46,387 nucleotides of DNA from an uncultured Anaerolineales bacterium (GCA_964452025.1 CAYVKR010000001.1:1-46387), one strand, 5' to 3'. Positions 18,638 to 46,035 are shown, counted from the first letter of the stretch. The notes: generated by a model from the letters alone, not told the origin. Numbers and translations: made by a program.

Positions 18638-19852
18638 ATGAGTGTTGTCATCTCTATTGAGCATCTCTCCAAGGAATTCGTTCTTAAGCAAGCCGCACCG
18701 CGCTCGTTTCAAGAACTCGTGGTTGACCTGTTGAGACGAAAAACGCACTCCCAGGTGGAGCGCTTTGTGGCGCTTGACGATGTCAGTCTAGAGATTGAGC
18801 AGGGCGAAACCGTGGGGCTGATCGGGCCCAATGGCGCGGGGAAGAGCACGCTGCTCAAGCTGGTGGCCGGCATTATCGAGCCTACCAGCGGCAACGTACA
18901 GATCTACGGAAGAGTGGGGGCCCTCTTGGAGCTCGGCGCCGGCTTTCATCCCGATCTGACGGGACGTGAGAACATCTACCTCAACGGGTCCATCCTGGGT
19001 CTATCTCGAGCTGAAATTCAGGACAAAATGGACGATATCATCTCCTTTGCCGAGCTGGAGCGCTTCATCGATGCGCCGGTGCGTCATTATTCCTCGGGCA
19101 TGTACGTGCGTCTGGGCTTTTCCGTGGCAGTGCACACGGAGCCGCAAATTCTCTTGGTGGATGAGGTGTTGGCCGTTGGCGACGCAGCCTTTCAGCGCAA
19201 ATGTATGGATAAAATCGACGACATGCGCAGGGCTGGCGTGACCATCCTCTTCGTCTCTCACAGCGCTGAACTTGTACGCAAGATCTGCAAGCGCGCCGTA
19301 TGGTTGGACGCGGGGCGCTGTGTGGCCGATGGTGCAGCGGAGTCGGTGGCGGCGCGGTATCTGGATCACTCGTGGGCGCAGGAGCAAACCCAAGTCGTCT
19401 CTGAAGAGGAGCGACGGTGGGGAAACGGCAAGGTGCGCATCACCGACGTGCGATTATTGGGCGGCGAGGGAAAAGAGCAGCAACGTTTTCGCACGGGAGA
19501 GCCGATGACCGTGGAGATGCACTACGTGGCAAAGGAGCGGATCGAACAACCGGTCTTCGGACTGGCGATTCATCGGAGCGACGGGACCCACATCACCGGG
19601 CCGAATACGCAATTCGCCGGGCACGAGATCCCGTGGATCGCGGGGGAAGGAGCAGTCCGGTACACTATTCCCTTCTTGCCGTTACTCGAAGGGCGCTATT
19701 TTATCTCGGTAGCGGCCCACAATTGGGAAGACACAGAAATGTACGACTATCGGGATCGAGAGTACACGTTTCGGATGTTACCCAGTGAGAACCAGGGATA
19801 TGGTATAGTGACGCTGAGAGGAGGATGGTTCTGGAGCGGACAAACGTCTTAA
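18638..19852 (+). CDS. polysaccharide-export ABC transporter ATP-binding protein (Wzt/TagH type) with C-terminal Wzt-C-like carbohydrate-binding domain
   Basis: Walker A GPNGAGKST, signature YSSGMYVRLGF, Walker B ILLVDEVLAVGD. The GALLELGAGFHPDLTGRENIYLNG block is typical of Wzt/TagH. An extra beta-rich tail of about 150 aa (VRITDVRLLG...YFISVAAHN). Confidence 0.92.
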   Translation: MSVVISIEHLSKEFVLKQAAPRSFQELVVDLLRRKTHSQVERFVALDDVSLEIEQGETVGLIGPNGAGKSTLLKLVAGIIEPTSGNVQIYGRVGALLELGAGFHPDLTGRENIYLNGSILGLSRAEIQDKMDDIISFAELERFIDAPVRHYSSGMYVRLGFSVAVHTEPQILLVDEVLAVGDAAFQRKCMDKIDDMRRAGVTILFVSHSAELVRKICKRAVWLDAGRCVADGAAESVAARYLDHSWAQEQTQVVSEEERRWGNGKVRITDVRLLGGEGKEQQRFRTGEPMTVEMHYVAKERIEQPVFGLAIHRSDGTHITGPNTQFAGHEIPWIAGEGAVRYTIPFLPLLEGRYFISVAAHNWEDTEMYDYRDREYTFRMLPSENQGYGIVTLRGGWFWSGQTS

Positions 19853-21219
19853 TTATCAGTCATGATGTGGTTGGGAAGCGGATGGCCGGACCTGGCATCC
19901 GTTATTATCACTTAGCCCGCGTTTTAGGTCAAGAGTTTGAGACAGTGTTGGCTGTGCCCTCAGAAATCTCACCTGACATCTCTCCTGAAGGTTTTCGTTT
20001 TACTTCCTATACACGACGCGATTGGGATTCTATTGCCACGTGGGTAGCTGCAGCAGATACGGTGATCTTTCCCAGTGACATCGCCAGTGATTTCCCTTTA
20101 CTGGCCCAGAGTGGCACTTTTTTGGTCGTCGACGGATACGATCCCTTGTTAGCCGAATGGTTATCCCTGAGTCAAGGGGAACCCCTGGAGAATTGGGAAC
20201 GGTACTGGTGGGATCGGATGTGCTCCTTAAACGAACAGTATCTGATGGGTGATTTTTTCATCTGCGCTAGTGAACGTCAGCGTGACTGGTGGTTGGGTTT
20301 ACTAGAAGCGAATGGCCGTATTAACCCCTACACGTTCAAAGGGGATCCCTCGTTGAGATCTCTAATCGACGTGGTGCCTTATGGCTTGCGGGACGTGGCT
20401 CCGCAAAGCACTGAGCCGGTGATCAAAGGGGTCTGGTCAGGGATTGAGCCTGAGGATAAGGTCATCTTGTGGGGTGGAGGGCTGTGGCCGTGGCTAGACC
20501 CCCTGACGGCTATCCGGGCCGTGGAATCTGTCAGGCAGCAGCGGCGTGACGTGCGTTTGGTCTTTCCTGGTACGAAACATCCGAATCCCTGGATGGAGGA
20601 AACACCGACGCACACCGATTCTGCTCGCGCATTAGCTCGGGAGAAAGGCCTATTGGGGAGGGCCGTCTTTTTTGGTGACTGGATACCCTATGAAGATTGG
20701 CCCAATGTGTTGTTGGAGAGTGATCTTGCTCTTTCCCTGCACTACGACACGTTGGAAACCCGGCTCGCTTTTCGCAGTCGAGTGCTGGATTACATTTGGG
20801 CGGGGCTGCCCGTGGTGGCGACAAAAGGCGATGCGACCAGCGATCTCATTTCCAACCATCACCTTGGCGCTGTGGTCGACTTCGAAGCTGTTGGGGGTGT
20901 TTCCGCAGCTATTCTGCAGCTCCTGGAAAAGCCTCGTGCTGAGTTTGATAAGCGGTTTGAAGAGGTGCGAAAAACGTTGACGTGGAGGGAGACAGCACGT
21001 CCGTTGTTGAATTTCTGCCGGCATCCTCATCGTGCAGCAGACAAGGCAGCACTGGGTGAAGATCTTGGTAGCCCCTTTTATACTGCAAAGATTCAGCAGA
21101 TCGTTGCTGAGTGGGAATATTGGCGTGAGCTGACACGGCAATATGAGCAAGGTCGGTTTATGCGTTTCATGCGCTGGATGGAGCGGATGCGGCGAAAATA
21201 TCTGGAGAAAGATGGATGA
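19825..21219 (+). CDS. glycosyltransferase (GT-B fold, GT4-like)
   Basis: N-terminal VLIISHDVVGKRMAGPGIRY. C-terminal half VILWGGGLWPWLDP...VRLVFPGTKHPN...DLALSLHYDTLETRLAFRSRVLDYIWAGLPVVATKGD. The exact start is uncertain (28-nt overlap with the ABC gene). Confidence 0.8.
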   Translation: MVLERTNVLIISHDVVGKRMAGPGIRYYHLARVLGQEFETVLAVPSEISPDISPEGFRFTSYTRRDWDSIATWVAAADTVIFPSDIASDFPLLAQSGTFLVVDGYDPLLAEWLSLSQGEPLENWERYWWDRMCSLNEQYLMGDFFICASERQRDWWLGLLEANGRINPYTFKGDPSLRSLIDVVPYGLRDVAPQSTEPVIKGVWSGIEPEDKVILWGGGLWPWLDPLTAIRAVESVRQQRRDVRLVFPGTKHPNPWMEETPTHTDSARALAREKGLLGRAVFFGDWIPYEDWPNVLLESDLALSLHYDTLETRLAFRSRVLDYIWAGLPVVATKGDATSDLISNHHLGAVVDFEAVGGVSAAILQLLEKPRAEFDKRFEEVRKTLTWRETARPLLNFCRHPHRAADKAALGEDLGSPFYTAKIQQIVAEWEYWRELTRQYEQGRFMRFMRWMERMRRKYLEKDG

Positions 21220-22532
21220 AGGCCTCGATTATCATCCCGGTTTGGAACGGACGGGAGTATCTACGCGACTGCCTTGATGCGGTGCTGGCCCAGGATTATC
21301 CAGACTTTGAGGTTATCGCTGTGGATAATGCGTCCACGGACGGTTCTGCCGATTTTGTGGCGGAGCAGTATCCCGACGTGCGCTTGATCCTGTACGAAGA
21401 AAACCGGGGATTCGCAAAGGCGTGTAACGCCGGTTTGTGCTCTGCGTCTGGCGAAGTCCTTATCTTACTTAACCAGGACACGGAAGTCCAACTTGGCTGG
21501 CTGACTGCGTTGATCAAGGTACTGAGATCTGACCCACAGGTGGGCATTGTGGGGGGCAAGGCTTTGTATCCCGATGGGCGTATTCAACATGCAGGCGGGC
21601 ATATTGATATGCGCGGCGCGGGTGTGCACTATGGACACGGCGACGTCGACATGGGTCAGCATGATCAGCGTCGGGAGGTCGATTACGTCACCGGCGCAGG
21701 CCTGGCTATCACGCGGCAGGCCTATGACCTCATAGGCCCATTGGATGAAGGGTTTTCTCCTGCCTATTATGAGGACGTAGATTGGTGTTATCGTGCGTCG
21801 GAAGTGGGATTTCGTGTCGTCTATGTGCCCCAGGCGGTGATGATCCACGAGGAGACGAGTTCGCTTGCCCGTCCCCATTCCTATGAGGGCATGTACTTGC
21901 CCCAACGCAATCGACTGCGCTTTGTTTTGAAACATTGGCCAACAGATCGATTGCTGGATGAATTTTTACCTCATGAGACTGCTTGGCTCCAGACGTTGGA
22001 TGAGGGTGGTGAACGACTTGTCGCCGTGATGCACCGTGTCTATCTCTTTCATCTGCTGCATCTACAGTCAACGTTGAGGGCACGGGCAGCACGATATGGG
22101 AGCGCGATGGAGGACGTTGACCCCATCGCCCACGTGCTCTTGACGTTGCGGGCGGTGACGCCCCTACGTCCTGCGCGATTGTTTGACGAATCGCCGGATC
22201 AGCCTGCTGCACAGACCGCGCTTCTTCGCCGTCTTCACGAAGGATGGTCTATTGAGCCACGGCCCTTTCAATCCGACGTGCCTGTTATCGGACCACTTAT
22301 CGTCTTTTTCCGTCGTCAGTGGAACCGTGTTGCAACGGAGTGGTATGTTCGCCCCATGATTCAGCAGCAAGTCGAGTTCAACGCCGAAGTGGTGACCATG
22401 CTCAAGCAGTTGCACCGCGACTATCAGAGGTTGGCTGAAGTTCTGGCGGAATATCTTCGCGAGGATGGCCGAGAGATTGCGGAGTTGGGCCAGGCGATTC
22501 AAGATCTGGCTGTCTCAATGGAGAAAGATTAG
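21216..22532 (+). CDS. GT2 family glycosyltransferase with ~95-aa C-terminal helical/coiled-coil module
   Basis: SIIIPVWNGREYLRDCLDAVLAQDYPDFEVIAVDNASTDGS, a DxD-equivalent in LLNQDTE, and YYEDVDWCYR. The C-terminal tail is described in the findings. Confidence 0.9.
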   Translation: MKASIIIPVWNGREYLRDCLDAVLAQDYPDFEVIAVDNASTDGSADFVAEQYPDVRLILYEENRGFAKACNAGLCSASGEVLILLNQDTEVQLGWLTALIKVLRSDPQVGIVGGKALYPDGRIQHAGGHIDMRGAGVHYGHGDVDMGQHDQRREVDYVTGAGLAITRQAYDLIGPLDEGFSPAYYEDVDWCYRASEVGFRVVYVPQAVMIHEETSSLARPHSYEGMYLPQRNRLRFVLKHWPTDRLLDEFLPHETAWLQTLDEGGERLVAVMHRVYLFHLLHLQSTLRARAARYGSAMEDVDPIAHVLLTLRAVTPLRPARLFDESPDQPAAQTALLRRLHEGWSIEPRPFQSDVPVIGPLIVFFRRQWNRVATEWYVRPMIQQQVEFNAEVVTMLKQLHRDYQRLAEVLAEYLREDGREIAELGQAIQDLAVSMEKD

Positions 22533-22545
22533 AATTTCAGTTACT

Positions 22546-23784
22546 ATGCGGGTTCTAGTCGTGACCAACACGTTTCCCCCCGGATACACTGGCGGGGCCG
22601 AGATCTCCAATTATCATACCTGCCGGGGATTGCGAAAGCGCGGGATAGATTGCTCGATTCTGGTTCTCAACAACCGCCGGGGCAAGACAGTGGACGAGTG
22701 GTATGAGTTTGACGGCATCCCAGTTCATCGCGCCCATGTGGTCACCAAAAAACGGACGGCATGGCGAGATGTTTTTGATCCGCGAATCTATCGTGCGGTG
22801 CGAACGGCCTTGCGGAAGCTACAGCCCGACCTTGTGCACGTCCACAACGTCTCGGGAACCACCTTGGCACCTTACCTGGCCTGTCGGCAGGTGGGCGTGC
22901 CGGTGGTCAATACGTTGCACGATCTCTGGTTACTCTGTCCGAATAACATGCTCTATCGAAAGGATGGGTCGTTTTGCGATCCCAAACAATACCCTCGCGG
23001 GTGCGGAGACTGCTTCCGACGTTACGATTATTGGGGCGACATCGTCGGGCGACGCCGGATTTTTTCTCTGCTGACCGCCAACGTCTCGTATTTCATCTCT
23101 CCCAGTCAGGCGATCATTGACCGGCACGTGGAAGCGGGCTATGCACGTGAACGTTTTCGGCTGGTGCGACTGGGCTTCGAGAACCCAGGCCCTCAAAGAC
23201 CACAGCATCCAACCGTGCGCGCCGTTGTGGAGATGGCTAGGCGTTATCAAGTGATCGTTTTTGCCGGCGGCGGTGTGGAGATTAAAGGCGCGTGCGTTTT
23301 ACTGGAGGCGATACCTATGTTACTCGCCCACATCGACCGTTTGAGAATGGTGGTCGCTGGCGGCGGGGACAAACGGTTCCTGGATCAGTTTCGCAGATAT
23401 GCACCAGCGGTTCAGGTGCTGGGAAAGGTCCCTTTCCGGGAGATGCGCACGCTATTTGGTGCTGGTGATTTGACGATACTTCCTTCGGTTTGGCATGAAA
23501 ACTCACCTGTGGTCATCTTTGAAAGCTTCCAGAGAGGCACGCCGGTCCTTGCTTCCAAGATTGGGGGGATTCCCGAGTTTATTCAAGAAAATCGTACCGG
23601 CTATCTGTTTCCGCCCGCCAGCGCCAGTGCGCTGGCGGAAAAGGCAATCTTGCATTTCGCTCGTTCTGCTGTGGAGCGGCGAAGGATGCGCCAAACGTGC
23701 TATCGATATGTCGATGAAGAACTGGCGTTCAAGCAGCATATCGAAGGGATACTGACCGCCTATGATGAGGTTCTGGGATACTGA
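22546..23784 (+). CDS. GT4 family glycosyltransferase
   Basis: MRVLVVTNTFPPGYTGGAE start. C-terminus PSVWHENSPVVIFESFQRGTPVLASKIGGIPEFI (E-x7-E-type motif). Confidence 0.9.
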   Translation: MRVLVVTNTFPPGYTGGAEISNYHTCRGLRKRGIDCSILVLNNRRGKTVDEWYEFDGIPVHRAHVVTKKRTAWRDVFDPRIYRAVRTALRKLQPDLVHVHNVSGTTLAPYLACRQVGVPVVNTLHDLWLLCPNNMLYRKDGSFCDPKQYPRGCGDCFRRYDYWGDIVGRRRIFSLLTANVSYFISPSQAIIDRHVEAGYARERFRLVRLGFENPGPQRPQHPTVRAVVEMARRYQVIVFAGGGVEIKGACVLLEAIPMLLAHIDRLRMVVAGGGDKRFLDQFRRYAPAVQVLGKVPFREMRTLFGAGDLTILPSVWHENSPVVIFESFQRGTPVLASKIGGIPEFIQENRTGYLFPPASASALAEKAILHFARSAVERRRMRQTCYRYVDEELAFKQHIEGILTAYDEVLGY

Positions 23785-25010
23785 TGCGGTTGTTACACGT
23801 GACCCATCAATACCGGCCTGCCATTGGTGGCGCTGAGACGTACATCGCCGATCTTTCGGAAACGCTGGCGCGGCGCGGACATCATATAGACGTTTTCACC
23901 AGTCGTTCTGTTGACTATCGAACCTGGCGCAGTGCCTTACCCGGGTTCGAGCGATTAAATGGCGTCGATGTGTATCGCTTTCGCAGCTTGCCGCGCACGG
24001 ATCACGTCTGGCGAGCGCTCAAATGTGGCTTCAAGCATTACTGGCGTACGAGACGATGGTGGTACGAACCCTTTATCTTCTACGGCAACGGCCCTGTGAG
24101 TCTGGGTATGTTGGCAGCGCTTATGCGCCGGGTTGGTTCCTATGATCTCGTTCATATCAACAATCTGCACTATGCGCACGCGCTTCTTGCGTATCTGGCG
24201 GCTCGGTTGCGGCGGGTGCCGTACGTCATCACGCCTCATCTCCACGCGGAACAGCGGGAGACCCATGACGTAGGATATATGCACACAATCTTACGAGACA
24301 GCCATGCGATTCTGACCGTGAGCCGCGCTGAAAAGCAATATCTGTTGATGCGCGGCTGGAACGACCGCGTGATCGTGGGCGGCAATGGCTTACGACTGGA
24401 GGATTTTCCGGTGTATGACCGGCGAGCGTGTCGAGCGCATTTTGGATTGCCGGATGCCGCTTTCGTGATGCTATTCCTGGGGCGGAAGACGGCCTACAAG
24501 GGCCTGGAATTGTGTCTAGATGCATTTCTAACCCTGCGTCAGGTACGGGAGGACATCCATTTTTTGGCCGTCGGGCCGGAAACCGAGTTCTCACAGCGTT
24601 TATGGGAGCGCCGGCCCGAGGTCAAGGGTCTGGTCGTGCGGGGTAGGGTGTCTGATGAGGAACGTCTGAAAGCCCTACAAGCGTGTGACGTCCTGGTGCT
24701 TCCTTCCGTTGGAGAGGCGTTTGGCATCGTCTATCTGGAAGCGTGGGCCTACGAGAAGCCAGTCATTGGGGCGGACATTGCGTCGGTAGCTTCTATTATC
24801 GATCATGGCGTGGATGGGCTGCTGGTCGCGCCCCAGGCGCTGGGTAGGCTGGTAAAGGGGCTTTCCCAGATCGCCGACAACCCTTCCCAGGCTCAAGAGA
24901 TGGGACGGCGGGGGCGAGAAAAGCTCGAAGAACGCTACACGGTTGAGCGCATTGCGGACATTGTCGAGGGGACCTGTGCGCGAGTGATAAGGGCATACGG
25001 TACAGGGTGA
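23784..25010 (+). CDS. GT4 family glycosyltransferase
   Basis: MRLLHVTHQYRPAIGGAETY. PSVGEAFGIVYLEAWAYEKPVIGADIASVASII. Confidence 0.9.
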   Translation: MRLLHVTHQYRPAIGGAETYIADLSETLARRGHHIDVFTSRSVDYRTWRSALPGFERLNGVDVYRFRSLPRTDHVWRALKCGFKHYWRTRRWWYEPFIFYGNGPVSLGMLAALMRRVGSYDLVHINNLHYAHALLAYLAARLRRVPYVITPHLHAEQRETHDVGYMHTILRDSHAILTVSRAEKQYLLMRGWNDRVIVGGNGLRLEDFPVYDRRACRAHFGLPDAAFVMLFLGRKTAYKGLELCLDAFLTLRQVREDIHFLAVGPETEFSQRLWERRPEVKGLVVRGRVSDEERLKALQACDVLVLPSVGEAFGIVYLEAWAYEKPVIGADIASVASIIDHGVDGLLVAPQALGRLVKGLSQIADNPSQAQEMGRRGREKLEERYTVERIADIVEGTCARVIRAYGTG

Positions 25011-25121
25011 ATCGTCTAATCTAGTCCCCGGTTTATCTTAACACCTTGTTGCTTTCTCTGTTTACAATCATGTATACTCACTCCTACTGGGTGAGCTGAG
25101 ACGTTCCAGAGGGTTGCGACT

Positions 25122-26636
25122 ATGCGTATAAGTTTGATCAATGTGAATCTGGTAGCACAAGACGCGATTGGTCAGTGTATGCTGCACCAGTTGCGCTTCT
25201 TCCGTCGTCGGGGTGATGAGGTACGGACCTACACCTTGCATCCCCCAGAAGGTGTAACAGAAGACATCGTGGAGCTGACGCGCGTGGTAGACCTTGCAGA
25301 TCTTATTGCCCGTCGGGGTGAGCACTTTGCACGTTCCGACCTGTACATCTATCATTATCCGGGACGATATCCCTTGATGGAGAGCATCAAGGGGCTGGAG
25401 CGCGGCGCCGTGATCTTCTACTATCACAACGTGACGCCGCCAGAGCTCTGGAACGCGGCCTCGGATCGCGAGGCGCTGCGCCACAGTGCTACCAGCGTCG
25501 ATGAGCTGGCCTATTACGCAGATCTTGTGGTGACCCCTAGCCCCTTCAACGCAAAGCAGTTGGTCGAGGAGCAGCACCTTGAAAGGGATCAAATCCGAGT
25601 ACTGCCGCTTGCAGTTCCGCTCAACGACTTTTCTCCAGGGGCACCCGATCCCGCGTTGGTGCGTTTCTATCACGCCGACGGACGCGCCGTGGTCCTCTTC
25701 GTGGGACGAATGGCGAGCAATAAGCGGATCGATCTGCTGATTGAAGCATTATCCAAGGTTCGCCACGCGGTGCCCGGGGCGATGCTTATGTTGGTGGGTG
25801 ATAATGATAGCAATCCGGCGATTAAAGAAACCGTAGCCCATGCCCATCGCAAGGCCGCCGATTTAGGAGTGGCAGATGATGTGGTGTTTGCTGGACGTGT
25901 GGATGACTTGCCCGACTACTATCGCATGGCGTCCGTTTACGCCTCTGCCAGTTTGCACGAGGGCTTTGGCGTGCCGCTCATCGAGGCGATGGCTTCTGGG
26001 TTGCCCGTGGTGGCCAGCCGGACGACGGCGCATCCCTGGGTGGTGAACGAGGCCGGCCTGCTGGCTGAACCTGGGGACGCAGGTGATATGGCTGAAAAGA
26101 TCCTCCAGGTGCTCACAGATGACGAGATCTATGGGGAGTTGGTGCGTCGAGGTTTGCAACGGGCGCGTGAATTCTCGCTGGAGCAGTATCTCTATGGTTG
26201 GGATAAGATTGTGCGGGAAGCAACCGCCTGGCTCCCCGATCAACCTTACCCGCGACCGCAATCGGTCAGGGCGCGCCTAGTAGAGCCCCACGCGGCAGAT
26301 GCGCCCACTGTGGAGGATGTGTTGTTCCAGGGCGAGCTGGGTCGGCTGAACGCGAAGGCGGATATCCGCTTGCGTGGTTACAAGATCCGCTCTAAGATAC
26401 CGATTTTTGGCCCGCTGGTCACATGGTTTCGCCGGAACCTCACCTCGCATCTTCGAGAACCTTACATCGATCCTACTTTTGCGCGCCAGGTGGCTTTCAA
26501 CCGCGAACTCGTTGATCGGCTAGGATGGTTCATAGATCAACTCAAAAAGGCGGAGCGGCGATTAGCTGAGCAGGCGGCACGTATCACCACGTTGGAGAGA
26601 GAGCTGGCGAAACGCAAATCAGGTGAAGACCGGTGA
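25122..26636 (+). CDS. GT4 family glycosyltransferase, paralog A1 (YYHNVTPP type) with C-terminal helical module
   Basis: VIFYYHNVTPPELW and SLHEGFGVPLIEAMASGLPVVAS. About 87-aa tail IPIFGPLVTWFRRN...QVAFNRELV plus coiled coil. Confidence 0.9.
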   Translation: MRISLINVNLVAQDAIGQCMLHQLRFFRRRGDEVRTYTLHPPEGVTEDIVELTRVVDLADLIARRGEHFARSDLYIYHYPGRYPLMESIKGLERGAVIFYYHNVTPPELWNAASDREALRHSATSVDELAYYADLVVTPSPFNAKQLVEEQHLERDQIRVLPLAVPLNDFSPGAPDPALVRFYHADGRAVVLFVGRMASNKRIDLLIEALSKVRHAVPGAMLMLVGDNDSNPAIKETVAHAHRKAADLGVADDVVFAGRVDDLPDYYRMASVYASASLHEGFGVPLIEAMASGLPVVASRTTAHPWVVNEAGLLAEPGDAGDMAEKILQVLTDDEIYGELVRRGLQRAREFSLEQYLYGWDKIVREATAWLPDQPYPRPQSVRARLVEPHAADAPTVEDVLFQGELGRLNAKADIRLRGYKIRSKIPIFGPLVTWFRRNLTSHLREPYIDPTFARQVAFNRELVDRLGWFIDQLKKAERRLAEQAARITTLERELAKRKSGEDR

Positions 26637-26651
26637 AGTGTCGTAAGAGGT

Positions 26652-27527
26652 ATGATGACGTACCATAAAGTTTCTACAGACACGACGGTCATCTTCTTGC
26701 ACATCCAGAAGACCGCAGGGACGACGTTACACCGCATCATCGAGCGATACTACACGCCGGAGGAGATCTATTTCTTCGACGCGCACACGTATACGTATGA
26801 GCATTTCTCGAGTTTGAGTGCAGCAGAGCGGGCAAACATCCGCATGCTCCGGGGCCACATGGTCTTTGGACCGCATGAGCTGTTGCCGCAACCGACGACC
26901 TACTTCACCGTACTGCGCGATCCCATCGAACGTGTGGTCTCGCACTATTACCACGTCCGGCGTGACGCCAATCACTGTTATCATGATTTCCTGATCTCAA
27001 ACGAGATGGATCTAAAAGCCTACGTCGAAAGTGGTATTCATCGGGGAATGAGCGATTTTCAGACGCGAGTGTTGGCCGGCGGCAAGTGGCACAATGCACC
27101 CTATGGGAAGTGTCCAGAGGAAGCATTGGAGGCTGCGAAGGAAAACTTTCGAAAACACTTTGCCGTAGTCGGCTTGATGGAGCGGTTCGATGAGACGTTG
27201 TTTTTTCTTAGACGGGCCTTCGGCTGGCGAGACATCTTCTACGTCCCTCGGAACGTGAGTCGCCGCCGACCGAGCAAGCATGAGCTCGCGCCTGAAACGC
27301 TAGAGGCTATTGTCAACGTCAATCGTGTTGACGTTAAACTGTATGCCCATGTGAAGGAGCAATTTGATCAGAACGTTCGCCGACTCGGCCCTGCATTTGC
27401 AGGAAAAGTTCGGGTATTTCGAATAGTCAACCGTTGGTTTGGTCCCTTTCTGTATGGAGAAGGCAAGGCGCAAACAGGATGGGTACGAGATAAAATCCGG
27501 CGCGGGGTCCATTGGATGGTTTCGTAG
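26652..27527 (+). CDS. carbohydrate sulfotransferase-like protein (Sulfotransfer_2/HS6ST-like)
   Basis: 5'-PSB-like FLHIQKTAGTTLHRII and 3'-PB-like YFTVLRDPIERVVSHYYH, as in heparan-sulfate 6-O-sulfotransferase-type enzymes. Confidence 0.85.
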   Translation: MMTYHKVSTDTTVIFLHIQKTAGTTLHRIIERYYTPEEIYFFDAHTYTYEHFSSLSAAERANIRMLRGHMVFGPHELLPQPTTYFTVLRDPIERVVSHYYHVRRDANHCYHDFLISNEMDLKAYVESGIHRGMSDFQTRVLAGGKWHNAPYGKCPEEALEAAKENFRKHFAVVGLMERFDETLFFLRRAFGWRDIFYVPRNVSRRRPSKHELAPETLEAIVNVNRVDVKLYAHVKEQFDQNVRRLGPAFAGKVRVFRIVNRWFGPFLYGEGKAQTGWVRDKIRRGVHWMVS

Positions 27528-27610
27528 GGCTTGTTAAGATATCAGTTCTCGTCGCCATCACGCCATGCAGAGATAAACTGAACCCCCGATTTTTTTTGGA
27601 TTTTTTCAGT

Positions 27611-27770
27611 GGTAGTCACCCCTTAACCTGTTGGTGGCATAAGCTACCTTCCCGGAAGCTGGGAAAACTAATCTGACAGGCTAAAACCTGCGCAAGGGTG
27701 GGTAGTTCTGCTCAGAACCATCCGCCCTACCTTCCGGGAAGGTGACCCACACTCAAGAGGGAGACTATCT
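27611..27770 (+). other. nested inverted-repeat / structured-RNA candidate in a 360-bp intergenic gap
   Basis: Outer imperfect IR ggtagtcaccc (27611-27621) / gggagactatc (27759-27769). Perfect 13-bp stem accttcccggaag (27646-27658) / cttccgggaaggt (27731-27743). Central 13-position hairpin gggtgggtagttc (27696-27708) / gaaccatccgccc (27715-27727): 10 Watson-Crick pairs, 2 GU wobbles and 1 mismatch. Confidence 0.35.
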
Positions 27771-27794
27771 TTCAGTAGAGTCAGTGTTATTTAG

Positions 27795-27803
27795 TGTTAT
27801 AAT
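27795..27803 (+). promoter_or_regulatory. extended -10 promoter element TGTTATAAT
   Basis: Exact TGnTATAAT about 85 nt upstream of the epimerase ATG. Same 9-mer as at 13639(-) and 34072(+). Confidence 0.45.
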
Positions 27804-27888
27804 GGGATTTTGCTGGAAATCCTTGTTATCATGTTGGCACAACACGGATTTGATTAGCTACAATAGATAATCAGTAAGGAGGAATTGG

Positions 27889-28908
27889 ATGAAAATATTT
27901 ATCACAGGCGGCGCTGGCTTCATCGGCTGCAATCTAGCGGATTATCACCTCAGCCAGGGTGACGAGGTCATCGTCTTTGACAACCTCTCTCGAAAAGGAA
28001 CCGATAACAATTTGCAGTGGTTGCGGGAGCGTAGCGATGGGTTGACGTTTATCTGGGGCGATATTCGAGACTTTGAGGCGCTTCGGGCAGCGCTAAGCGC
28101 GGACGTGGAGCGTGTTTACCACATGGCGGGACAGGTGGCGGTCACCACCTCGGTCACCGATCCCCGCGAAGATTTCGACATCAATGCGCTGGGGACGTTC
28201 AACCTCTTGGAAGCGGTGCGTGCCGAGGCCTCTGAGGCCATCGTCTTCTACGCCTCGACCAACAAAGTGTACGGTGGGATGGAAGACGTAGTGGTTGTTG
28301 AAGACGAGACACGTTACCGTTACCGGGATTTCCCTCAAGGTATTTCCGAGACTCAACCCCTGGATTTTCATTCACCCTATGGTTGTTCCAAAGGCGCTGG
28401 TGATCAATATGTGCGCGATTATGCGCGCATCTACGGCTTGAAGACCGTTGTCTTTCGGCAGTCGTGCATCTACGGGACGCGCCAGTTCGGCGTAGAGGAT
28501 CAGGGCTGGGTGGCCCATTTCTGCATTGCTGCTCGGCTCGGACGTCCCATCACGATCTACGGCAACGGCAAACAGGTGCGAGATGTGCTGTGGATCGAGG
28601 ATCTGGTGCAGGCCTACGAATCGGCGGCATCCAACATCGAACAGACGGCGGGGAGGATCTACAATATCGGGGGCGGCGCAAAGAACACCATGGCGATCTG
28701 GGCGGAGTTTGGCCCTATCCTGGAGGAACTGGCGGGACATCCGATTCCTGTGACGTATTCCGAATGGCGTCCGGGGGATCAGCCCGTCTACGTCAGTGAC
28801 ATCAGCCGGGCGGAGGAGGAATTCGGTTGGATGCCTGAGACCTCCGTTAGAGAAGGCATTGGCAAATTGTGGGCCTGGATCGACAGCAATCCTGAGCTCT
28901 TTGAGTGA
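27889..28908 (+). CDS. NAD-dependent epimerase/dehydratase, CDP-paratose 2-epimerase (RfbE/TyvE)-like
   Basis: MKIFITGGAGFIGCNL, FDNLSRKGTDNNLQWL, STNKVYG, LDFHSPYGCSKGAGDQYVRDYARIYGLKTVVFRQSCIYGTRQFGVEDQGW. Strong aaggagg RBS. Confidence 0.9.
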   Translation: MKIFITGGAGFIGCNLADYHLSQGDEVIVFDNLSRKGTDNNLQWLRERSDGLTFIWGDIRDFEALRAALSADVERVYHMAGQVAVTTSVTDPREDFDINALGTFNLLEAVRAEASEAIVFYASTNKVYGGMEDVVVVEDETRYRYRDFPQGISETQPLDFHSPYGCSKGAGDQYVRDYARIYGLKTVVFRQSCIYGTRQFGVEDQGWVAHFCIAARLGRPITIYGNGKQVRDVLWIEDLVQAYESAASNIEQTAGRIYNIGGGAKNTMAIWAEFGPILEELAGHPIPVTYSEWRPGDQPVYVSDISRAEEEFGWMPETSVREGIGKLWAWIDSNPELFE

Positions 28909-28932
28909 GCCAGTCAGGACGTGGGAGAGCCT

Positions 28933-29448
28933 ATGAACAGAGACGACGTACGTGACGTTATCGAGATCCGAGATCCTGAGCTTGATGCGGAAGCCATCAT
29001 GCGGCAGATCCGGGAGAACATCCGCGAGCGACGCGCAGAGGCCGAAGCCAAGGGATTGAACTACGAGGCTTTTGTTGAAGGTTTGTACGCATCGCAGGTC
29101 AGCGCCCGTTTTGACCACCAGATTTACTATGATCTGCGCCGCATGAGTGTGGGATATGACAAGGTCGGAGTGGGGCTTTCGCTCACCGAGTCTCAACTGC
29201 CCATTATTGCTCCGCTGGTGCAGCGAGTCCGCCGGGCCTTACATCACCTCGTGATCTACTACGTCAACAAGTTGGCGGCGCAACAGGCGCGTTTCAATGA
29301 GTTTGTGGTGCGTGCCCTGACCAATCTTGTCAAGGCATTGGAAGATGGCCCGACGCCCGATGAGGTCGCAGCGCTGCAGGCGGAGGTAGAGGCATTGCGT
29401 GACCGGATCGAACACCTGGAGGCGCAGGCAGGTTCAGAACAAGCATGA
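28933..29448 (+). CDS. hypothetical helical/coiled-coil protein: stand-alone copy of the GT C-terminal module
   Basis: 171 aa. LPIIAPLVQRVRRALHHLVIYYVNKLAAQQARFNEFVV aligns with the tails of the 21216 and 25122 products. C-terminal heptad-like EVAALQAEVEALRDRIEHLEAQ. Confidence 0.7.
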   Translation: MNRDDVRDVIEIRDPELDAEAIMRQIRENIRERRAEAEAKGLNYEAFVEGLYASQVSARFDHQIYYDLRRMSVGYDKVGVGLSLTESQLPIIAPLVQRVRRALHHLVIYYVNKLAAQQARFNEFVVRALTNLVKALEDGPTPDEVAALQAEVEALRDRIEHLEAQAGSEQA

Positions 29449-30620
29449 AACTGGCCATTGTGGTGCCTCGCTACGGTGAGGAGATTCTGGGCGGCGCGGA
29501 GACCTTCGCGCGGGAACTGGCGGAGCGCCTGCCCAGCCCGGCGTACGAGGTTGAGGTATTGACAACCTGCGCTGACGATCTCGTCCGCTGGCGTAACGTC
29601 TTTCCCGCCGGAGAGACAAAGATCAACGGCGTACTGGTCCATCGCTTCCCCATCGATCACAGCCAGCGGAACGAAAAGCGGTACTGGGAACTGATGATCA
29701 AGTTTACCAACCGCTGGCCTACCACCGTCGACGAGGAGTATGAGTGGATTGAGCAGAGCGCGCACAGCCCAGAGCTCTACGCGCACATTGCGCGTTACGG
29801 CTCATCCTATGACTTCCTGATCTTTGTGCCTTACCTCTTTGGGACCACGTTCTACGGCACCGCTCTCTGGCCGGACCGCAGCGTTCTGTGGCCCTGCCTG
29901 CACGATGAACCGTTTGCCCGCTTCTTGCAGACGCGCGTGATGATGCAAGATTGTCGTGGGATCATGTTCACCAGTGAACCGGAGCGGCGGCTGGCTGAGG
30001 GAAAACTGGGCATTCGAAATCCCGGCGCCACCATCGTGGGGTTTGGGCTTGAGCCGTACTTAGCTGACCCCGAACGTTTCCGTCAGCAGTTTGGCATATC
30101 TGATCCTTTTATGCTTTACTCTGGGCGCATTGACAGTATGAAGAACCTGTTGCAACTGCTAACTTTCTTCATTTCCTATAAAGAGACGCATCCCGGCCCG
30201 CTGAAACTGGTGCTGATGGGAAAGGGGCCTCTTCCCATTCCCGACCGATCTGATATCATCGAGATCGGATTTCAGACCGGTCAGACGAAACTGGATGCCT
30301 ACGCAGCTGCAACTCTTCTCTGTCAACCGTCCTTGATGGAAAGTTTCTCGATTGTGATCATGGAAGCGTGGCTGGCCGGCGTGCCCGTGTTGGTCCACGG
30401 CGATTGCGACGTGACTCGGCATCATGTTCTGCGCAGCGATGGCGGCTTGTACTTTGCCGATGAGAAAGAGTTCCACGGCGCTGTGCAGTGGCTGATGTCC
30501 CATCCTGACCAACGACAGCGTATGGGTGAGTTGGGATACGCTTACGTGCGTCGTGAGTACAATTGGGACACGGTCTTAGGGCGGTTTCAGGATGCAATCC
30601 GGCTCTGGCAGCGTCTCTGA
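29445..30620 (+). CDS. GT4 family glycosyltransferase
   Basis: MKLAIVVPRYGEEILGGAETF. QPSLMESFSIVIMEAWLAGVPVLVHG. The ATGA start overlaps the upstream stop. Confidence 0.88.
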   Translation: MKLAIVVPRYGEEILGGAETFARELAERLPSPAYEVEVLTTCADDLVRWRNVFPAGETKINGVLVHRFPIDHSQRNEKRYWELMIKFTNRWPTTVDEEYEWIEQSAHSPELYAHIARYGSSYDFLIFVPYLFGTTFYGTALWPDRSVLWPCLHDEPFARFLQTRVMMQDCRGIMFTSEPERRLAEGKLGIRNPGATIVGFGLEPYLADPERFRQQFGISDPFMLYSGRIDSMKNLLQLLTFFISYKETHPGPLKLVLMGKGPLPIPDRSDIIEIGFQTGQTKLDAYAAATLLCQPSLMESFSIVIMEAWLAGVPVLVHGDCDVTRHHVLRSDGGLYFADEKEFHGAVQWLMSHPDQRQRMGELGYAYVRREYNWDTVLGRFQDAIRLWQRL

Positions 30621-31716: not shown

Positions 31717-32581
31717 AACTGACGATAGGGATAGAGCCATCGTTTTTCTTCATATTCCCAAGACCGCTGGCACGACGCTGCATCGCATTATCGAGCGCCA
31801 GTATGCGCCCGAGGAGATGTACTCCGTCGGGTTGGTCGACGGGCACTCGGTGGCCCACCTCCAGCAGATGGAGGAAGCGCAGCGCGCCGGCATTCGGATG
31901 TTCCGGGGACACATGGGTTTTGGCGTACATCAGTACCTGCCCGGGCCGACGACCTACTTCACGGTGCTACGTGATCCGGTGGATCGGGTGATCTCGTACT
32001 ACTACTTCATTCGGCGCACTGCAAGTCATTATCTGCACGATTTCATCAGCGAGGGCGAGATTGATCTGAAATCCTTCATTGAGAGCAAAGCCCACGTGAT
32101 GATCGACAACGCGCAAACCCGCGTGATCTCTGGGGTCTGGCACGGGCCGAAGTTTGGTCAGTGCTCGCCAGAGATGCTGGAGAGGGCCAAACAGCATCTA
32201 CAAGATGAGTTCGCTGTGATCGGGCTGACGGAACGGTTCAACGAGACGCTGCTTTTACTCTCCAAGACCTTCGGTTGGCGGCACCTCTATTACACGCGTA
32301 AAAATGTCTCCCGTAAACGACCACGAAAAGAGGATCTGTCAGGGGATACTTTGGACGCCGTGATTCGGGCCAATCGTCTGGATATGGAACTCTACGAATT
32401 CGGCAAACGGTTGTTTGAGGCTCACCTTCAACGCCAATCTTCAGGATTCCAGAGAGAGGTACGTTGGTTTGAAACCACAAATCGCGTGGTTAATGTGGTG
32501 ATCAAAGGCTATTGGGAAGCTAGGAAAGTATCCATACGCACGATGGTAAGAGACTGGTGGCGCCGGATGCGTGACCAATAA
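31706..32581 (+). CDS. carbohydrate sulfotransferase-like protein (paralog of 26652..27527)
   Basis: FLHIPKTAGTTLHRIIER and YFTVLRDPVDRVISYYYF. Same length (291 aa) and colinear with the first sulfotransferase. Confidence 0.85.
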   Translation: MTARTDDRDRAIVFLHIPKTAGTTLHRIIERQYAPEEMYSVGLVDGHSVAHLQQMEEAQRAGIRMFRGHMGFGVHQYLPGPTTYFTVLRDPVDRVISYYYFIRRTASHYLHDFISEGEIDLKSFIESKAHVMIDNAQTRVISGVWHGPKFGQCSPEMLERAKQHLQDEFAVIGLTERFNETLLLLSKTFGWRHLYYTRKNVSRKRPRKEDLSGDTLDAVIRANRLDMELYEFGKRLFEAHLQRQSSGFQREVRWFETTNRVVNVVIKGYWEARKVSIRTMVRDWWRRMRDQ

Positions 32582-38849: not shown

Positions 38850-41270
38850 GTGAATGTGCGACGACGCAGATGCATACTTTTGATCCTGATTTTCGTCTTT
38901 ACGCTCCTGGGGTGTTCAAGTTATCTGGATCAGGATCAAGTCTCTACGGGTTTTCAGAGCGATCTCTATCTTGGAAACCACAATACGGTTGGCCAGACTT
39001 TCGTCGCGCGTCACGGCGGTCTAAACGGCGTTGAGTTCTGGCTGCATCCTACGCCGGGCGCGAGTGGTCGCCTGCGGATGCGCCTGTTTCGTGGGCCTGA
39101 TACTGATCAAGAAATTGCCACTGCTGAGCTCTCTCTTGAAAGCGGTTCCTCTCCTGGCTTTCACAGATTCACCTTTGAGCCCTTGCGCGCATCCCATGGA
39201 GAGTATTACTACGCCGTGCTGACCTTCGAAGGTGAAGGCGAGGTCCAGTTAGGAACCGGACTCGGTGACGCCTACCTCGATGGTGCCGTATACCAGGACC
39301 ATGAGCCGAAAAATGCCCAGGCCGCTTTCCGCCTGACCTACGATCCTTGGTGGATGGCGCTGGAATTGGCCGGCGCGGCGGTGCGCGGAGCAGGACTCAT
39401 CGGGGTGGCGCTGCTGCTCTACGCAGTGCCGGGGTGGGCGCTGCTGGCCTGGCTCTGGCCGCACTCTGATCTCACCTGGGCCGAGCGACTGGCGTTAGCC
39501 GTAGGCATTAGCCTGGCGCTCTATCCTCTGCTCCTGCTCTGGACCGATGTCGTGGGCCTGCACCTCGGCGCACTCTATGCTTGGATTCCCGTCGTAGGCG
39601 GCCTCGTTGCTCTGGTGTGGCGCCACCGCGACTGGCGACCGCGCAAAGGCGGGGATGCGTTGAAGCGTTGGGCGCGCTCCGACGTGCTCTGGCCTGACGT
39701 GACCTTGTTGATCGTCCTGGCCCTGGTCTTTGGGGTGCGGTTGCTCGTCGTGCGGACGCTGGACGCGCCCATGTGGGGCGATTCGTACCAGCACACCATG
39801 ATCGCGCAGCTGTTGGTGGACAATGGCGGTCTCTTCAATTCTTGGGAACCGTATGCGGATCTACGCTCGTTTACCTATCATTTTGGATTTCACACTGCTG
39901 TGGCCGTTTTTCACTGGGTGACCCGAACGCCAATGGTCAACTCGGTTATCTGGATGGGACAGCTGCTAAATGGGTTGGCGGTTTTCACGCCAGCGCTTTT
40001 GACCCGGCGGATCAGCAAAAACCCGTGGGTTGTCCCCTCGACCGTATTATTGTCCGGCTTGCTTTCGCCCATGCCCATGTATTACGTCAACTGGGGGCGC
40101 TACACGCAGTTGGCTGGGCAGGTAATTCTGCCGGTCGCGGTGTGGCTTTCTTGGGAGGCCTTCAGCGCTGAGCGGCGACGCTGGCACTTGGTGGCGCTGA
40201 CCTGGTTGGCCGTGGGGGGGCTTGCCCTGACGCACTATCGCGTCTTGATTTTCTACGTCGCGTTTGTGTTGGCCTGGTTGCTCGTCTCTTTCCGGGGCGA
40301 TGGGCGCAAGGCCGTATCTCGCGTCGTCACGGTAGGTCTGGGCGGCGCACTCCTTTTCTTACCCTGGTTCATGCATATCGCAGGTGGAAAGATCCTGGCA
40401 AACTTCGGTCGCCAATTGACGACGGGCGCGAGCCAGGTTTCGGGGTTCACTCAAGATTACAATACCATCGGTGATTTTACTCTTTACTTGGCGCCCGCTG
40501 GCTGGCTTCTCTTTGCTGTAGCGTTAGGGTATAGTCTTTGGCTACGCAAACGAGGATCACTGCTGATAGGCCTCTGGTGGTTTTTTCTCTTGATCGCTAC
40601 CAATCCAGCGTGGTTACATCTCCCGGGTAGCGGGGCGATCAGCAATTTTGCCCTGTTCATAGCAACCTATTTACCCTGGGGAGTATTGGTCGGGATCCTG
40701 GTGGCTGATATGTTCACCTACTTGACGTCCTTAAGGTTTGGGACTATTCTGGTCATGTTGGTTGTTGTGGTTACAAGCTTATTGGGGGCTCGAGAGCGTT
40801 TGCGCGACCTGCGTATCTCTCAGCACGCGATGGTCACCCGTCCTGATCTTCGGGCTATGAAATGGATCCAAGAACACACGTCTGAGGATGCACGTTTCTT
40901 GGTTAATTCATTCTTTGCGTATGGGGATAGCGTGATTGTAGGTGCGGATGGCGGCTGGTGGCTCCCATTGTTGGCTGGGCGGGAGAATACGGTTCCACCC
41001 TTAAATTACGATTTTGAATCTGCACCTTGGGAAGGATATCGATCTTCACTGCATAGCTTAGCACGCGAAATTATCGAGTACGATTTTGGTGATCCGGAGT
41101 TGATTGAATCCCTCGACCTTCAGAGGATTACTCATATATATATTGGTCAGAGGCAGGGAAGTATTAATCATAGCAACGGTTTCTTAATAGTTGAACAGCT
41201 TGTTGAGGAGCCGTACTATGAATTGCTTTATCATCAAGATCGTGTGTGGATCTTTCGAGTTGTGAAATGA
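38850..41270 (+). CDS. polytopic membrane protein with lipoprotein-type N-terminal domain; putative GT-C-like glycan transferase or polymerase (function uncertain)
   Basis: 806 aa. Lipobox-like FTLLGCSS. A soluble domain of about 160 aa, then at least 12 hydrophobic segments. Loop DAPMWGDSYQHTMIAQLLVDNGG after an early TM. A soluble C-terminal domain of about 140 aa. No family assigned with confidence. Confidence 0.8.
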   Translation: MNVRRRRCILLILIFVFTLLGCSSYLDQDQVSTGFQSDLYLGNHNTVGQTFVARHGGLNGVEFWLHPTPGASGRLRMRLFRGPDTDQEIATAELSLESGSSPGFHRFTFEPLRASHGEYYYAVLTFEGEGEVQLGTGLGDAYLDGAVYQDHEPKNAQAAFRLTYDPWWMALELAGAAVRGAGLIGVALLLYAVPGWALLAWLWPHSDLTWAERLALAVGISLALYPLLLLWTDVVGLHLGALYAWIPVVGGLVALVWRHRDWRPRKGGDALKRWARSDVLWPDVTLLIVLALVFGVRLLVVRTLDAPMWGDSYQHTMIAQLLVDNGGLFNSWEPYADLRSFTYHFGFHTAVAVFHWVTRTPMVNSVIWMGQLLNGLAVFTPALLTRRISKNPWVVPSTVLLSGLLSPMPMYYVNWGRYTQLAGQVILPVAVWLSWEAFSAERRRWHLVALTWLAVGGLALTHYRVLIFYVAFVLAWLLVSFRGDGRKAVSRVVTVGLGGALLFLPWFMHIAGGKILANFGRQLTTGASQVSGFTQDYNTIGDFTLYLAPAGWLLFAVALGYSLWLRKRGSLLIGLWWFFLLIATNPAWLHLPGSGAISNFALFIATYLPWGVLVGILVADMFTYLTSLRFGTILVMLVVVVTSLLGARERLRDLRISQHAMVTRPDLRAMKWIQEHTSEDARFLVNSFFAYGDSVIVGADGGWWLPLLAGRENTVPPLNYDFESAPWEGYRSSLHSLAREIIEYDFGDPELIESLDLQRITHIYIGQRQGSINHSNGFLIVEQLVEEPYYELLYHQDRVWIFRVVK

Positions 41271-41278
41271 GGTAAATT

Positions 41279-41944
41279 ATGAAAAATATCGCGATGCTTA
41301 CGTTGTGGACGACGGTTTTAATTGGGGTCATGTTTTTGCTAAGTGATTGTAAGTATACAGAAATGTCGACTTCACCATTGTCTTCACCTTTGCAGTCAAA
41401 TTCACCGATTTCATCACCATCAGCTAGATCGATTTTACCTACAATGCCCGCAGTCGAGGAGACTCCTGTTCCTGGATCAATAGTGGAACCCGATATTGAT
41501 CTTGAAGCACTTGTTTTGCGTCCTGGAGATATGCAACCTTTTTTTGACCATGCGACTTATGCGATTACCCAACCTTATGAATCTGAATCGATGTGGGGGC
41601 TTCTAGTGACTTATCCTACAGAGATTCTGCAACATACAACTGCCTTTGCTGAGGGTTTTTCTACTCAAGTGGAGATATATAAGGAGTATTCACAAGCGGT
41701 CGATATGTATTATCTGAAGATGAAGGCACTTGAGGGTGAACGTATTAATCTAGATGACATTGCAGACAAAGGAGTCGCTTTTGTTTTGTCACCAACGTTG
41801 TCAGAATTAAATAAGCATGAATATACAATAATCATGAGGAAAGGCAATGTCCTTATCACTATAGAGATAAGAAGGGCTCACCCCATTACGGAGAAGGATA
41901 TTAAATCGATTTCGGGTCAAACTATCGATAAAATTTCCTACTAG
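41279..41944 (+). CDS. hypothetical lipoprotein
   Basis: 221 aa. Signal plus LLSDC lipobox-like site, then a Ser/Pro-rich linker. AT-rich codon usage unlike the core genome. Confidence 0.65.
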   Translation: MKNIAMLTLWTTVLIGVMFLLSDCKYTEMSTSPLSSPLQSNSPISSPSARSILPTMPAVEETPVPGSIVEPDIDLEALVLRPGDMQPFFDHATYAITQPYESESMWGLLVTYPTEILQHTTAFAEGFSTQVEIYKEYSQAVDMYYLKMKALEGERINLDDIADKGVAFVLSPTLSELNKHEYTIIMRKGNVLITIEIRRAHPITEKDIKSISGQTIDKISY

Positions 41945-42021
41945 ATCTCACATGATTCTTGACCGCGTTTTTTGGCTAATGCAACATTGGAGCAGTGCTG
42001 CAATTAACAGGGAGATACTTC

Positions 42022-43203: not shown

Positions 43204-43209
43204 ATTTTT

Positions 43210-43971: not shown

Positions 43972-43984
43972 TATAGCGTCACAT

Positions 43985-44815: not shown

Positions 44816-44830
44816 AACGAGGTTAAATAA

Positions 44831-45970: not shown

Positions 45971-46035
45971 TTATCAGCAATTCTCATTATGACATCCGGC
46001 ATTAAAATATCGGCAATTGGTGATATATTAATACT

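Follow-up and report, generated by a model that had tools for sequence, protein, structure and literature searches.

The Glycan Locus and Its Three Module-Bearing Genes

The 46,387-nucleotide stretch CAYVKR010000001.1:1-46387 from an uncultured Anaerolineales bacterium (assembly GCA_964452025.1), which is called the window here, contains a long same-strand series of glycan genes. Three proteins encoded in this series, namely a GT2 glycosyltransferase, a GT4 glycosyltransferase (GT4-A1), and a stand-alone open reading frame (ORF) product, ORF171, share a module that is followed by a coiled-coil-like tail. The features that bear on this module, with the results on which each module copy rests, are as follows (aa, amino acids; HMM, hidden Markov model).

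21216..22532, + strand: GT2 glycosyltransferase, 438 aa, with the module and a coiled-coil tail at its C-terminus
22245..22409, + strand: module copy 1, aa 344-398 of the GT2, subtype B, WSIEPRPFQSDVPVIGPLIVFFRRQWNRVATEWYVRPMIQQQVEFNAEVVTMLKQ (BLASTP; HMM, E = 2.4e-28; subtype B clade)
22410..22529, + strand: amphipathic, coiled-coil-like, putatively helical tail of ~40 aa behind module 1 (hydrophobic moment)
25122..26636, + strand: GT4-A1 glycosyltransferase, 504 aa (Pfam Glycos_transf_1, aa 185-342), with the module and a coiled-coil tail at its C-terminus
26358..26522, + strand: module copy 2, aa 413-467 of GT4-A1, subtype A, ADIRLRGYKIRSKIPIFGPLVTWFRRNLTSHLREPYIDPTFARQVAFNRELVDRL (BLASTP; HMM, E = 7.3e-26; subtype A clade)
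26523..26633, + strand: amphipathic helical tail of ~37 aa behind module 2 (hydrophobic moment, 0.5-0.7)
28933..29448, + strand: ORF171, stand-alone helical protein, 171 aa, with an N-terminal head helix, the module, and a coiled coil but no enzyme domain
29176..29328, + strand: module copy 3, in ORF171, subtype C, LSLTESQLPIIAPLVQRVRRALHHLVIYYVNKLAAQQARFNEFVVRALTNL (BLASTP; HMM, E = 4.6e-13; subtype C clade)
29445..30620, + strand: tail-less GT4, 391 aa, the ATG of which overlaps the ORF171 stop codon (ATGA, 29445-29448)

In the GT2, Pfam matches cover aa 4-121 (Glycos_transf_2) and aa 4-218 (Glyco_tranf_2_3), and aa 220-438 are without any match. GT4-A2 and GT4-A3, of 374 and 363 aa, have no tail, and their catalytic domains are paralogues of that of GT4-A1 (E = 3e-27 and 4e-27, respectively); the tail of GT4-A1 is thus an add-on. 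ORF171 starts at the ATG at 28933, with an alternative GTG at 28921 that would give 175 aa. It has 81 homologues, nearly all of ~170 aa, and those that are named come from metagenome-assembled genomes of Chloroflexi or Anaerolineae. The 391-aa GT4 that follows it is probably its partner enzyme, to judge from the gene arrangement.

A second conserved element of ORF171 lies upstream of the module, at aa 10-40 (window positions 28960-29050). It is a head helix with the pattern I-E-I-R-D-P-E-I-D-A-E-A-I-M-R-Q-I-R-E-N-I-R-x-R-R. Stretches resembling [DN]-P-x-I-D...I-M-x-x-I-R...R-R also occur between the two modules of the database protein P0011 (aa ~255-290) and at the N-termini of module-bearing methyltransferases (P0137 and P0088). 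A head helix of the ORF171 type could contact the partner enzyme.

The Three Tails Are Homologous

A sequence-only reading of the window had claimed that these three tails share one helical module of about 50 aa, and this similarity is real. In pairwise BLASTP, the GT2 and GT4-A1 tails are 37% identical over 79 aa (E = 2e-12), and ORF171 matches the GT2 tail at E = 3e-7 and the GT4-A1 tail at E = 7e-7. An HMM was built from database proteins alone, with the window copies excluded; when run against the six-frame translation of the window, it found the three copies with the E-values listed above, and no further match in the window at E <= 10. A profile of the three tails searched against the 3.1 Mb assembly (336 contigs, 85% complete) found these three copies alone, all of them within 7 kb, the next best match having E = 0.13.

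Coiled-coil-like sequences might be thought to resemble one another by chance or through their composition. The probability of this is negligible in the present case, since the invariant residues belong to a non-heptad motif and the database-only HMM selects exactly the three ORFs; BLASTP, residue conservation, and this HMM together rule it out.

Anatomy and Predicted Structure of the Module

An alignment of 182 instances defines a module core of 55 positions with the consensus a-D-[VI]-x-E-R-x-[FY]-x-S-x-x-P-[VIL]-[VIL]-G-P-L-I-x-x-x-R-R-x-[WL]-[TN]-x5-[WP]-Y-x-x-P-x3-[QR]-Q-x-x-F-N-x-x-V-V-x-x-L. Within it, S is conserved in 92% of the instances, P in 89%, G in 93%, R in 96%, Y in 96%, Q in 97%, F in 81%, and N in 99%. 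The three window copies align across the full core, in which the motif [FY]-x-S-x-x-P-x-x-G-P-L-I-x3-R-R-x10-Y-x2-P-x3-[QR]-Q-x2-F-N is present. The ORF171 copy lacks the mid-helix proline, is one residue shorter, and has A instead of G, a variant that is common to the whole subtype C clade.

With these near-invariant residues, the pattern given in the sequence-only reading proves essentially correct. The strings quoted there are all present, at S353...V393 in the GT2 and at S424...V464 in GT4-A1; in ORF171, the string runs from S87 to V126, and its start had been placed one residue off. The module itself begins ~10 residues upstream of that pattern, opening with an aromatic residue and a short helix.

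The AlphaFold2 model of the ORF171 family (33 sequences; mean predicted local distance difference test, pLDDT, of 72) is all-helical, with helices at residues 19-39, 62-77, 93-137, and 142-170. The module is predicted to form one long helix (93-137), which starts directly behind the S-x-x-P-x-x-[GA]-P turn and is followed by helix 142-170. The AlphaFold2 models of relatives are also the basis for taking the tail behind module 1 to be helical; in residues 52-90 of the GT2 tail, the hydrophobic moment is 0.54-0.69.

One explanation for the module is that of a peripheral membrane tether. Each enzyme would reach the lipid-linked acceptor by means of an amphipathic helix at the membrane interface, comparable to the C-terminal amphipathic helix of WbdD, and the helix would make no specific protein contacts. 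The first half of the module (PVIGPLIVFFRRQW) is hydrophobic, aromatic, and basic, with a hydrophobic moment of 0.45-0.58; the carrier enzymes must work at the membrane; and, in WbdD, a membrane-associated amphipathic helix adjoins the site at which the polymerase is recruited (PMC11231755). However, the mean hydrophobicity of this half is near zero, a value for which its moment does not exceed the threshold usual for surface-seeking helices. Conservation in the module is highest at polar positions (S, R, Y, Q, and N, at 92-99%), which points to a defined fold or an interface rather than to contact with lipid. Moreover, enzymes of the locus that have no module (a 464-aa GT4-like protein and both sulfotransferases) have short basic-aromatic tails that look more tether-like, and a tether leaves unexplained the three conserved subtypes and the tandem-triple proteins described below. 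A tether as the whole explanation is therefore rather doubtful.

Carriers of the Module

The carriers were studied in a set of 70 genome loci, retrieved by means of a subtype B pattern, together with three loci of the ORF171 family. This set contains 67 large and 79 small module-bearing ORFs. Among the 65 large carriers that were scanned, 35 are GT2 enzymes, 15 are GT4 enzymes, and 13 are methyltransferases. The module is fused to a glycosyltransferase or a methyltransferase in 63 of these 65 large carriers and, for the small carriers, lies directly upstream of one in 61 of 66 downstream ORFs. Both arrangements occur in the window, as the GT2 and GT4-A1 fusions and as the ATGA overlap between ORF171 and its GT4. 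A refutation foreseen in the sequence-only reading, that of a generic amphipathic membrane anchor with no preference for glycan loci, fails in the face of these carrier and neighbour counts. The other refutation foreseen there, a similarity without significance, fails as well.

The position of the module depends on the enzyme: it is C-terminal to glycosyltransferase domains and N-terminal to methyltransferase domains, from which it is separated by a spacing of ~100-130 residues. The architectures include module-coil-methyltransferase and, in P0082, GT4-module-coil-methyltransferase. The Pfam domains found in the best 150 database representatives are likewise GT4, GT2, Methyltransf_23 and its relatives, and FkbM. 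Some of the module-bearing methyltransferases are labelled in IMG, by automatic annotation, as "O-antigen chain-terminating methyltransferase".

In 58 of 66 cases, the ORF (~350-440 aa) immediately downstream of a small carrier (~120-190 aa) encodes a GT4, and the two genes very often overlap by 4 bp. The pair formed by ORF171 and its GT4 is kept in the syntenic relatives L005 and L006 and also in the distant, differently organised locus L007.

Further types of carrier were observed, including a radical SAM/SPASM protein (P0304, 571 aa) and a fusion of a GT4 with an FkbM methyltransferase (P0308, 624 aa). In locus L078 (ENA ERZ25068917, contig_38), from a genome of 63% G+C, a module-coil-methyltransferase protein, P0044, heads a GT4-GT4-GT2 run. 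P0044 belongs to a 90%-identity cluster of 20 members, several of which lie on contigs of 1-3 Mb; a homologue search with its N-terminal part had P0044 itself as the sole match.

Family Size and Taxonomic Range

The scan of genome and databases that the sequence-only reading had called for yields a large family in addition to the three genome copies. A HMMER scan of 1.84 billion cluster representatives (50%-identity clusters) found 1032 representatives at E <= 1e-3, of which 295 reach E <= 1e-10; the profile included ~40 coiled-coil positions, so that the weak end of the 1032 may include generic coiled coils. The best 150 representatives all align across the module core. All records that name an organism are from the Chloroflexota, namely the Anaerolineae, Chloroflexia, Caldilineae, Ardenticatenia, Thermoflexales, Ktedonobacterales, Dehalococcoidia, and Oscillochloris. 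Of 301 genomes sampled evenly across this phylum, at least 33 matched at E <= 1e-5, with up to 22 candidates scored in each genome, and the distribution among families was patchy. A tblastn search with the consensus module against 72,556 plasmids gave chance matches only (E >= 2) and hence no evidence for the module outside the Chloroflexota.

The module appears to be undescribed, as had been supposed, insofar as this could be tested. No model of Pfam-A or NCBIfam covers the GT2 and GT4-A1 tails, ORF171 has no family above chance, and no Pfam or NCBIfam model spans the module. The non-enzyme families among the best 150 relatives are generic coiled-coil ones only (e.g., DUF7310 in 4 of the 150). 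The module profile gave a single, chance-level match against all PDB sequences (E = 0.1), to a protein that is no glycan enzyme, and full-text searches of the literature found no paper on such a module. With ~1000 50%-identity clusters lacking annotation for the module region, a new family model is merited.

Sets per Locus, Subtypes, and Tandem Copies

Among the 35 loci with full 10-kb flanks, 24 hold two to five module ORFs, which are on the same strand nearly throughout (one ORF in 11 loci, two in 11, three in 9, four in 1, and five in 3). Five genomes of 6.5-7.9 Mb have two to four matches each, all in one cluster that spans 1.5-9.5 kb.

Such clustering raises the question of whether the copies associate with one another. 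It could be that the module acts as a homo-oligomerisation trigger only, such that each enzyme forms a homodimer or a homotrimer, different copies make no contact, and their co-occurrence reflects the clustering of glycan genes. The loci with a single module within 10 kb (11 of 35, plus L078) would fit this explanation, as would the homotrimeric state of WbdD (PMC3482155) and the divergence of the three subtypes, which resembles that of independent families. Nevertheless, a copy that has no enzyme domain and is coupled to the gene for a GT4 without a tail makes sense only with a partner; all copies of a genome are confined to one cluster of at most 10 kb, though these genomes surely have many other glycosyltransferase genes; and proteins with three modules in tandem exist. 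Homo-oligomerisation as the sole function is, on balance, unlikely.

The modules fall into subtypes with distinct signatures: RRNLTSHLREPY-x-DP in subtype A, W-N-x-[VI]-[SA]-T-x-W-Y-V-x-P in subtype B, and H-x-L-V-I-[FY]-Y-V-N, without a proline, in subtype C. In a FastTree phylogeny of 129 modules, the A, B, and C clades have supports of 0.87, 0.71, and 0.97, which are partly circular because the subtype labels were drawn from the same sequences as the tree. The window holds one copy of each of these subtypes. Its copies are 36-41% identical to one another, as against 58-74% to the closest modules of the same subtype in other genomes; hence, they are old paralogues that have been separately conserved and not the products of a recent duplication. 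This conservation of the subtypes suggests non-redundant roles.

A fourth, truncated subtype, D, has the signature RRLLRWY-x-x-P-I-V-x-QQN-x-FN. It has the longer pattern KITAAIQKVVRRLLRWYINPIVxQQNxFN, lacks the S-x-x-P-x-x-G-P turn, and is found on small proteins in loci that also have subtype B. Stretches similar to ...RRLLRWY..P...QQ..FN may also precede methyltransferases in other phyla. Its occurrences are as follows.

L014: 12844-13632
L026: 13464-13919
L030: 13156-13614
L039: 3686-4144
L072: 11366-11947

The chains of a small family carry three subtype A modules, either alone or behind a GT4 domain (P0001-P0005, P0009, P0255, and others), and A and B modules are combined in one protein in P0011, P0015, and P0016. 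The AlphaFold2 model of the tandem-triple protein P0001 (12 sequences) has a mean pLDDT of 69 and a predicted template modelling score (pTM) of 0.58, with helices at residues 52-109, 173-212, 230-271, 304-384, and 390-413; confidence is highest (pLDDT of 87-91) around and just behind the QQ..FN of the three modules.

A tentative extension is that A, B, and C constitute a combinatorial assembly code, in which one copy of each would join the others in a defined hetero-trimeric coiled coil. This coiled coil would determine which transferases, adaptor-recruited GT4s, and capping enzymes belong to one glycan assembly line, as well as their geometry; the tandem-triples would then be the single-chain form of such a bundle. 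This is possible, but less likely than not.

The Surrounding Genes and the Question of a Third Partner

The other genes of the glycan series around the module-bearing ones are as follows.

18638..19852, + strand: Wzt-type ATP-binding cassette (ABC) ATPase with a C-terminal carbohydrate-binding domain (Pfam ABC_tran and Wzt_C, E = 7.6e-34)
19825-21219: GT4-like protein, 464 aa, adjoining Wzt
22465-25010: two GT4s
26652-27527: sulfotransferase 1
27889-28908: short-chain dehydrogenase/reductase (SDR) epimerase
Downstream of the GT4 at 29445-30620: GT4-A2, sulfotransferase 2, and GT4-A3

As context, Wzt with a Wzt_C domain marks a pathway that depends on an ABC transporter and reads a cap. This leads to another explanation, in which the enzymes dock through the module not onto other modules but onto a third partner that they have in common, for instance the initiating transferase or the Wzm/Wzt exporter. 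In its favour are the Wzt of the window, with its carbohydrate-binding domain, and a Wzt_C-like ORF that lies no more than 10 kb from the module in 15 of the 35 fully flanked loci. It is improbable, given that more than half of the related loci have no Wzt_C within 10 kb and that the window has no Wzm gene. Matches to ABC2_membrane do occur in the genome, on other contigs only (C40, C98, C64, C141, C88, C8, C127, and C156).

The three enzymes mentioned above as having no module carry short basic-aromatic C-termini (window positions 21100-21216, 27440-27527, and 32490-32581). These end in ...RFMRFMRWMERMRRKYLEKDG in the 464-aa GT4-like protein, in ...KIRRGVHWMVS in sulfotransferase 1, and in ...IRTMVRDWWRRMRDQ in sulfotransferase 2, and they look like interfacial membrane tethers. 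A degenerate module was looked for in the 464-aa GT4-like protein, and none was found.

At the other end of the window (41000-46387), the G+C content falls from ~0.55 to ~0.40 over the final 5 kb, where the genes are those for an aminotransferase, two methyltransferases, and a GT4. The glycan locus may have acquired this low-G+C section separately.

A Proposed Docking and Oligomerisation Head

The reading that is favoured here, with a probability of about one in two, is that the module is the docking and oligomerisation head of a coiled-coil enzyme complex analogous to that of WbdD. It is suggested by the restriction of the carriers to glycan enzymes, by the gathering of the copies in a single locus, by the separate subtypes, by the stand-alone copies coupled to GT4 genes, and by the chain-terminator-like methyltransferases, in which the module sits at the base of a longer helical spacer. 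A docking element had been put forward in the sequence-only reading, and comparative genomics lends support to it through the sets per locus, the GT4-coupled stand-alones, the terminator-type methyltransferases, and the tandem-triples.

On this interpretation, the module would form the conserved head of a helical tail that is portable and has no catalytic function. In this tail, a short helix leads through the S-x-x-P-x-x-G-P turn to a ~45-residue helix (RR...Y...QQ..FN) and then to a heptad coiled coil. It would most likely nucleate and specify the association of the coiled coils, and the enzymes of one glycan assembly line would thereby be gathered in a single complex. This complex would consist of GT2 and GT4 enzymes, of tail-less GT4s that small adaptors bring in, and, in other genomes, of capping methyltransferases; ORF171, which is translationally coupled to the next GT4, probably recruits that GT4. 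In the window, the tails of the GT2, GT4-A1, and ORF171 may form a hetero-oligomer, possibly three-stranded like the WbdD trimer. Physical association, stoichiometry, membrane contact, and any effect on chain length are inferences.

Several observations weigh against such a complex. The single-module loci mean that hetero-association cannot be obligatory. With its basic and aromatic character (F/W, RR, and W), the module's first half would also fit a helix at the membrane interface. No Wzm permease gene lies beside Wzt or elsewhere in the window, nor is there a recognisable module-bearing terminator in the window. Because the related loci were fetched with the subtype B pattern, the combinations of subtypes in them are biased towards B. 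Finally, a Foldseek search of the PDB with the AlphaFold2 model of the tandem-triple returned generic long-helix proteins only (E > 0.1, template modelling score < 0.25) and was uninformative. The docking, homo-oligomer, and membrane-tether readings are not mutually exclusive.

A function in setting chain length, as a ruler, had been proposed as an alternative to docking. The window has ~40 helical amphipathic residues behind each module, compared with the 100-130 aa between module and methyltransferase in relatives; with these short tails, no module-bearing terminator, and no Wzm, a ruler role appears weaker for this window.

Comparison with Known Coiled-Coil Systems

A few enterobacterial O-antigen systems are known to use coiled-coil scaffolds that join polymerisation to capping and export. 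To our knowledge, the recognition of partners in these systems is poorly defined.

WbdD, the chain terminator of E. coli O9a and K. pneumoniae O3, has a coiled coil that is a molecular ruler. It forms a trimer through a bundle of three helices and recruits the polymerase WbdA by means of its C-terminal region (PMC3482155), which also binds the membrane (PMC11231755). The likeness to the present locus lies in the ABC-transporter pathway, with a Wzt that has a carbohydrate-binding domain; in the presence, on a glycan enzyme, of a helical or coiled-coil region without catalytic function, which in WbdD serves oligomerisation and the recruitment of another enzyme; and in the relatives of the module on methyltransferases named by IMG as chain-terminating.

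There are also differences. The module has no sequence match in the PDB, which would include constructs of WbdD residues 1-556 (PMC3482155), residues 557-708 being in no solved structure; judged by its sequence, the module is not a member of the WbdD family. In WbdD, one scaffold binds an unrelated polymerase, whereas here a homologous module is present on several partners (GT2, GT4, adaptor, and methyltransferase). The carriers in the window, unlike WbdD, have no terminating enzyme domain (they have a GT2 domain, a GT4 domain, or none), and their coiled coils are short (~40 aa); relatives elsewhere do bear Methyltransf_23 or FkbM domains. As the organism is a member of the Chloroflexota, the product is not a classical lipopolysaccharide O antigen.

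In Klebsiella O4, O7, and O12, the coiled-coil proteins ORF7-O4, ORF6-O7, and WbbB scaffold the polymerase and the terminator (PMC11231755). As in the Chloroflexota loci, catalytic modules are spread variably over single- and multi-module proteins that are assembled on a coiled-coil protein, and the GT4-module-coil-methyltransferase layout of P0082 mirrors the methyltransferase-coil-glycosyltransferase layouts of Klebsiella. As described, the Klebsiella systems differ in having coiled coils but neither a conserved head motif common to the partners nor a family of stand-alone adaptors paired with GT4 genes (PMC11231755).

In the Chloroflexota, a short, sequence-defined module would thus mark the partners directly (GT2s, GT4s, capping methyltransferases, and small adaptors), within one locus and in conserved subtypes. 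It could serve as a searchable signature for assembly complexes in an under-studied phylum, and it gives a testable hypothesis on how tail-less glycosyltransferases are recruited. The modules are also compact candidate parts for the engineered co-localisation of enzymes. If the code of A, B, and C subtypes were true, it would be the counterpart, in a glycan pathway, of the docking domains in modular polyketide synthases.

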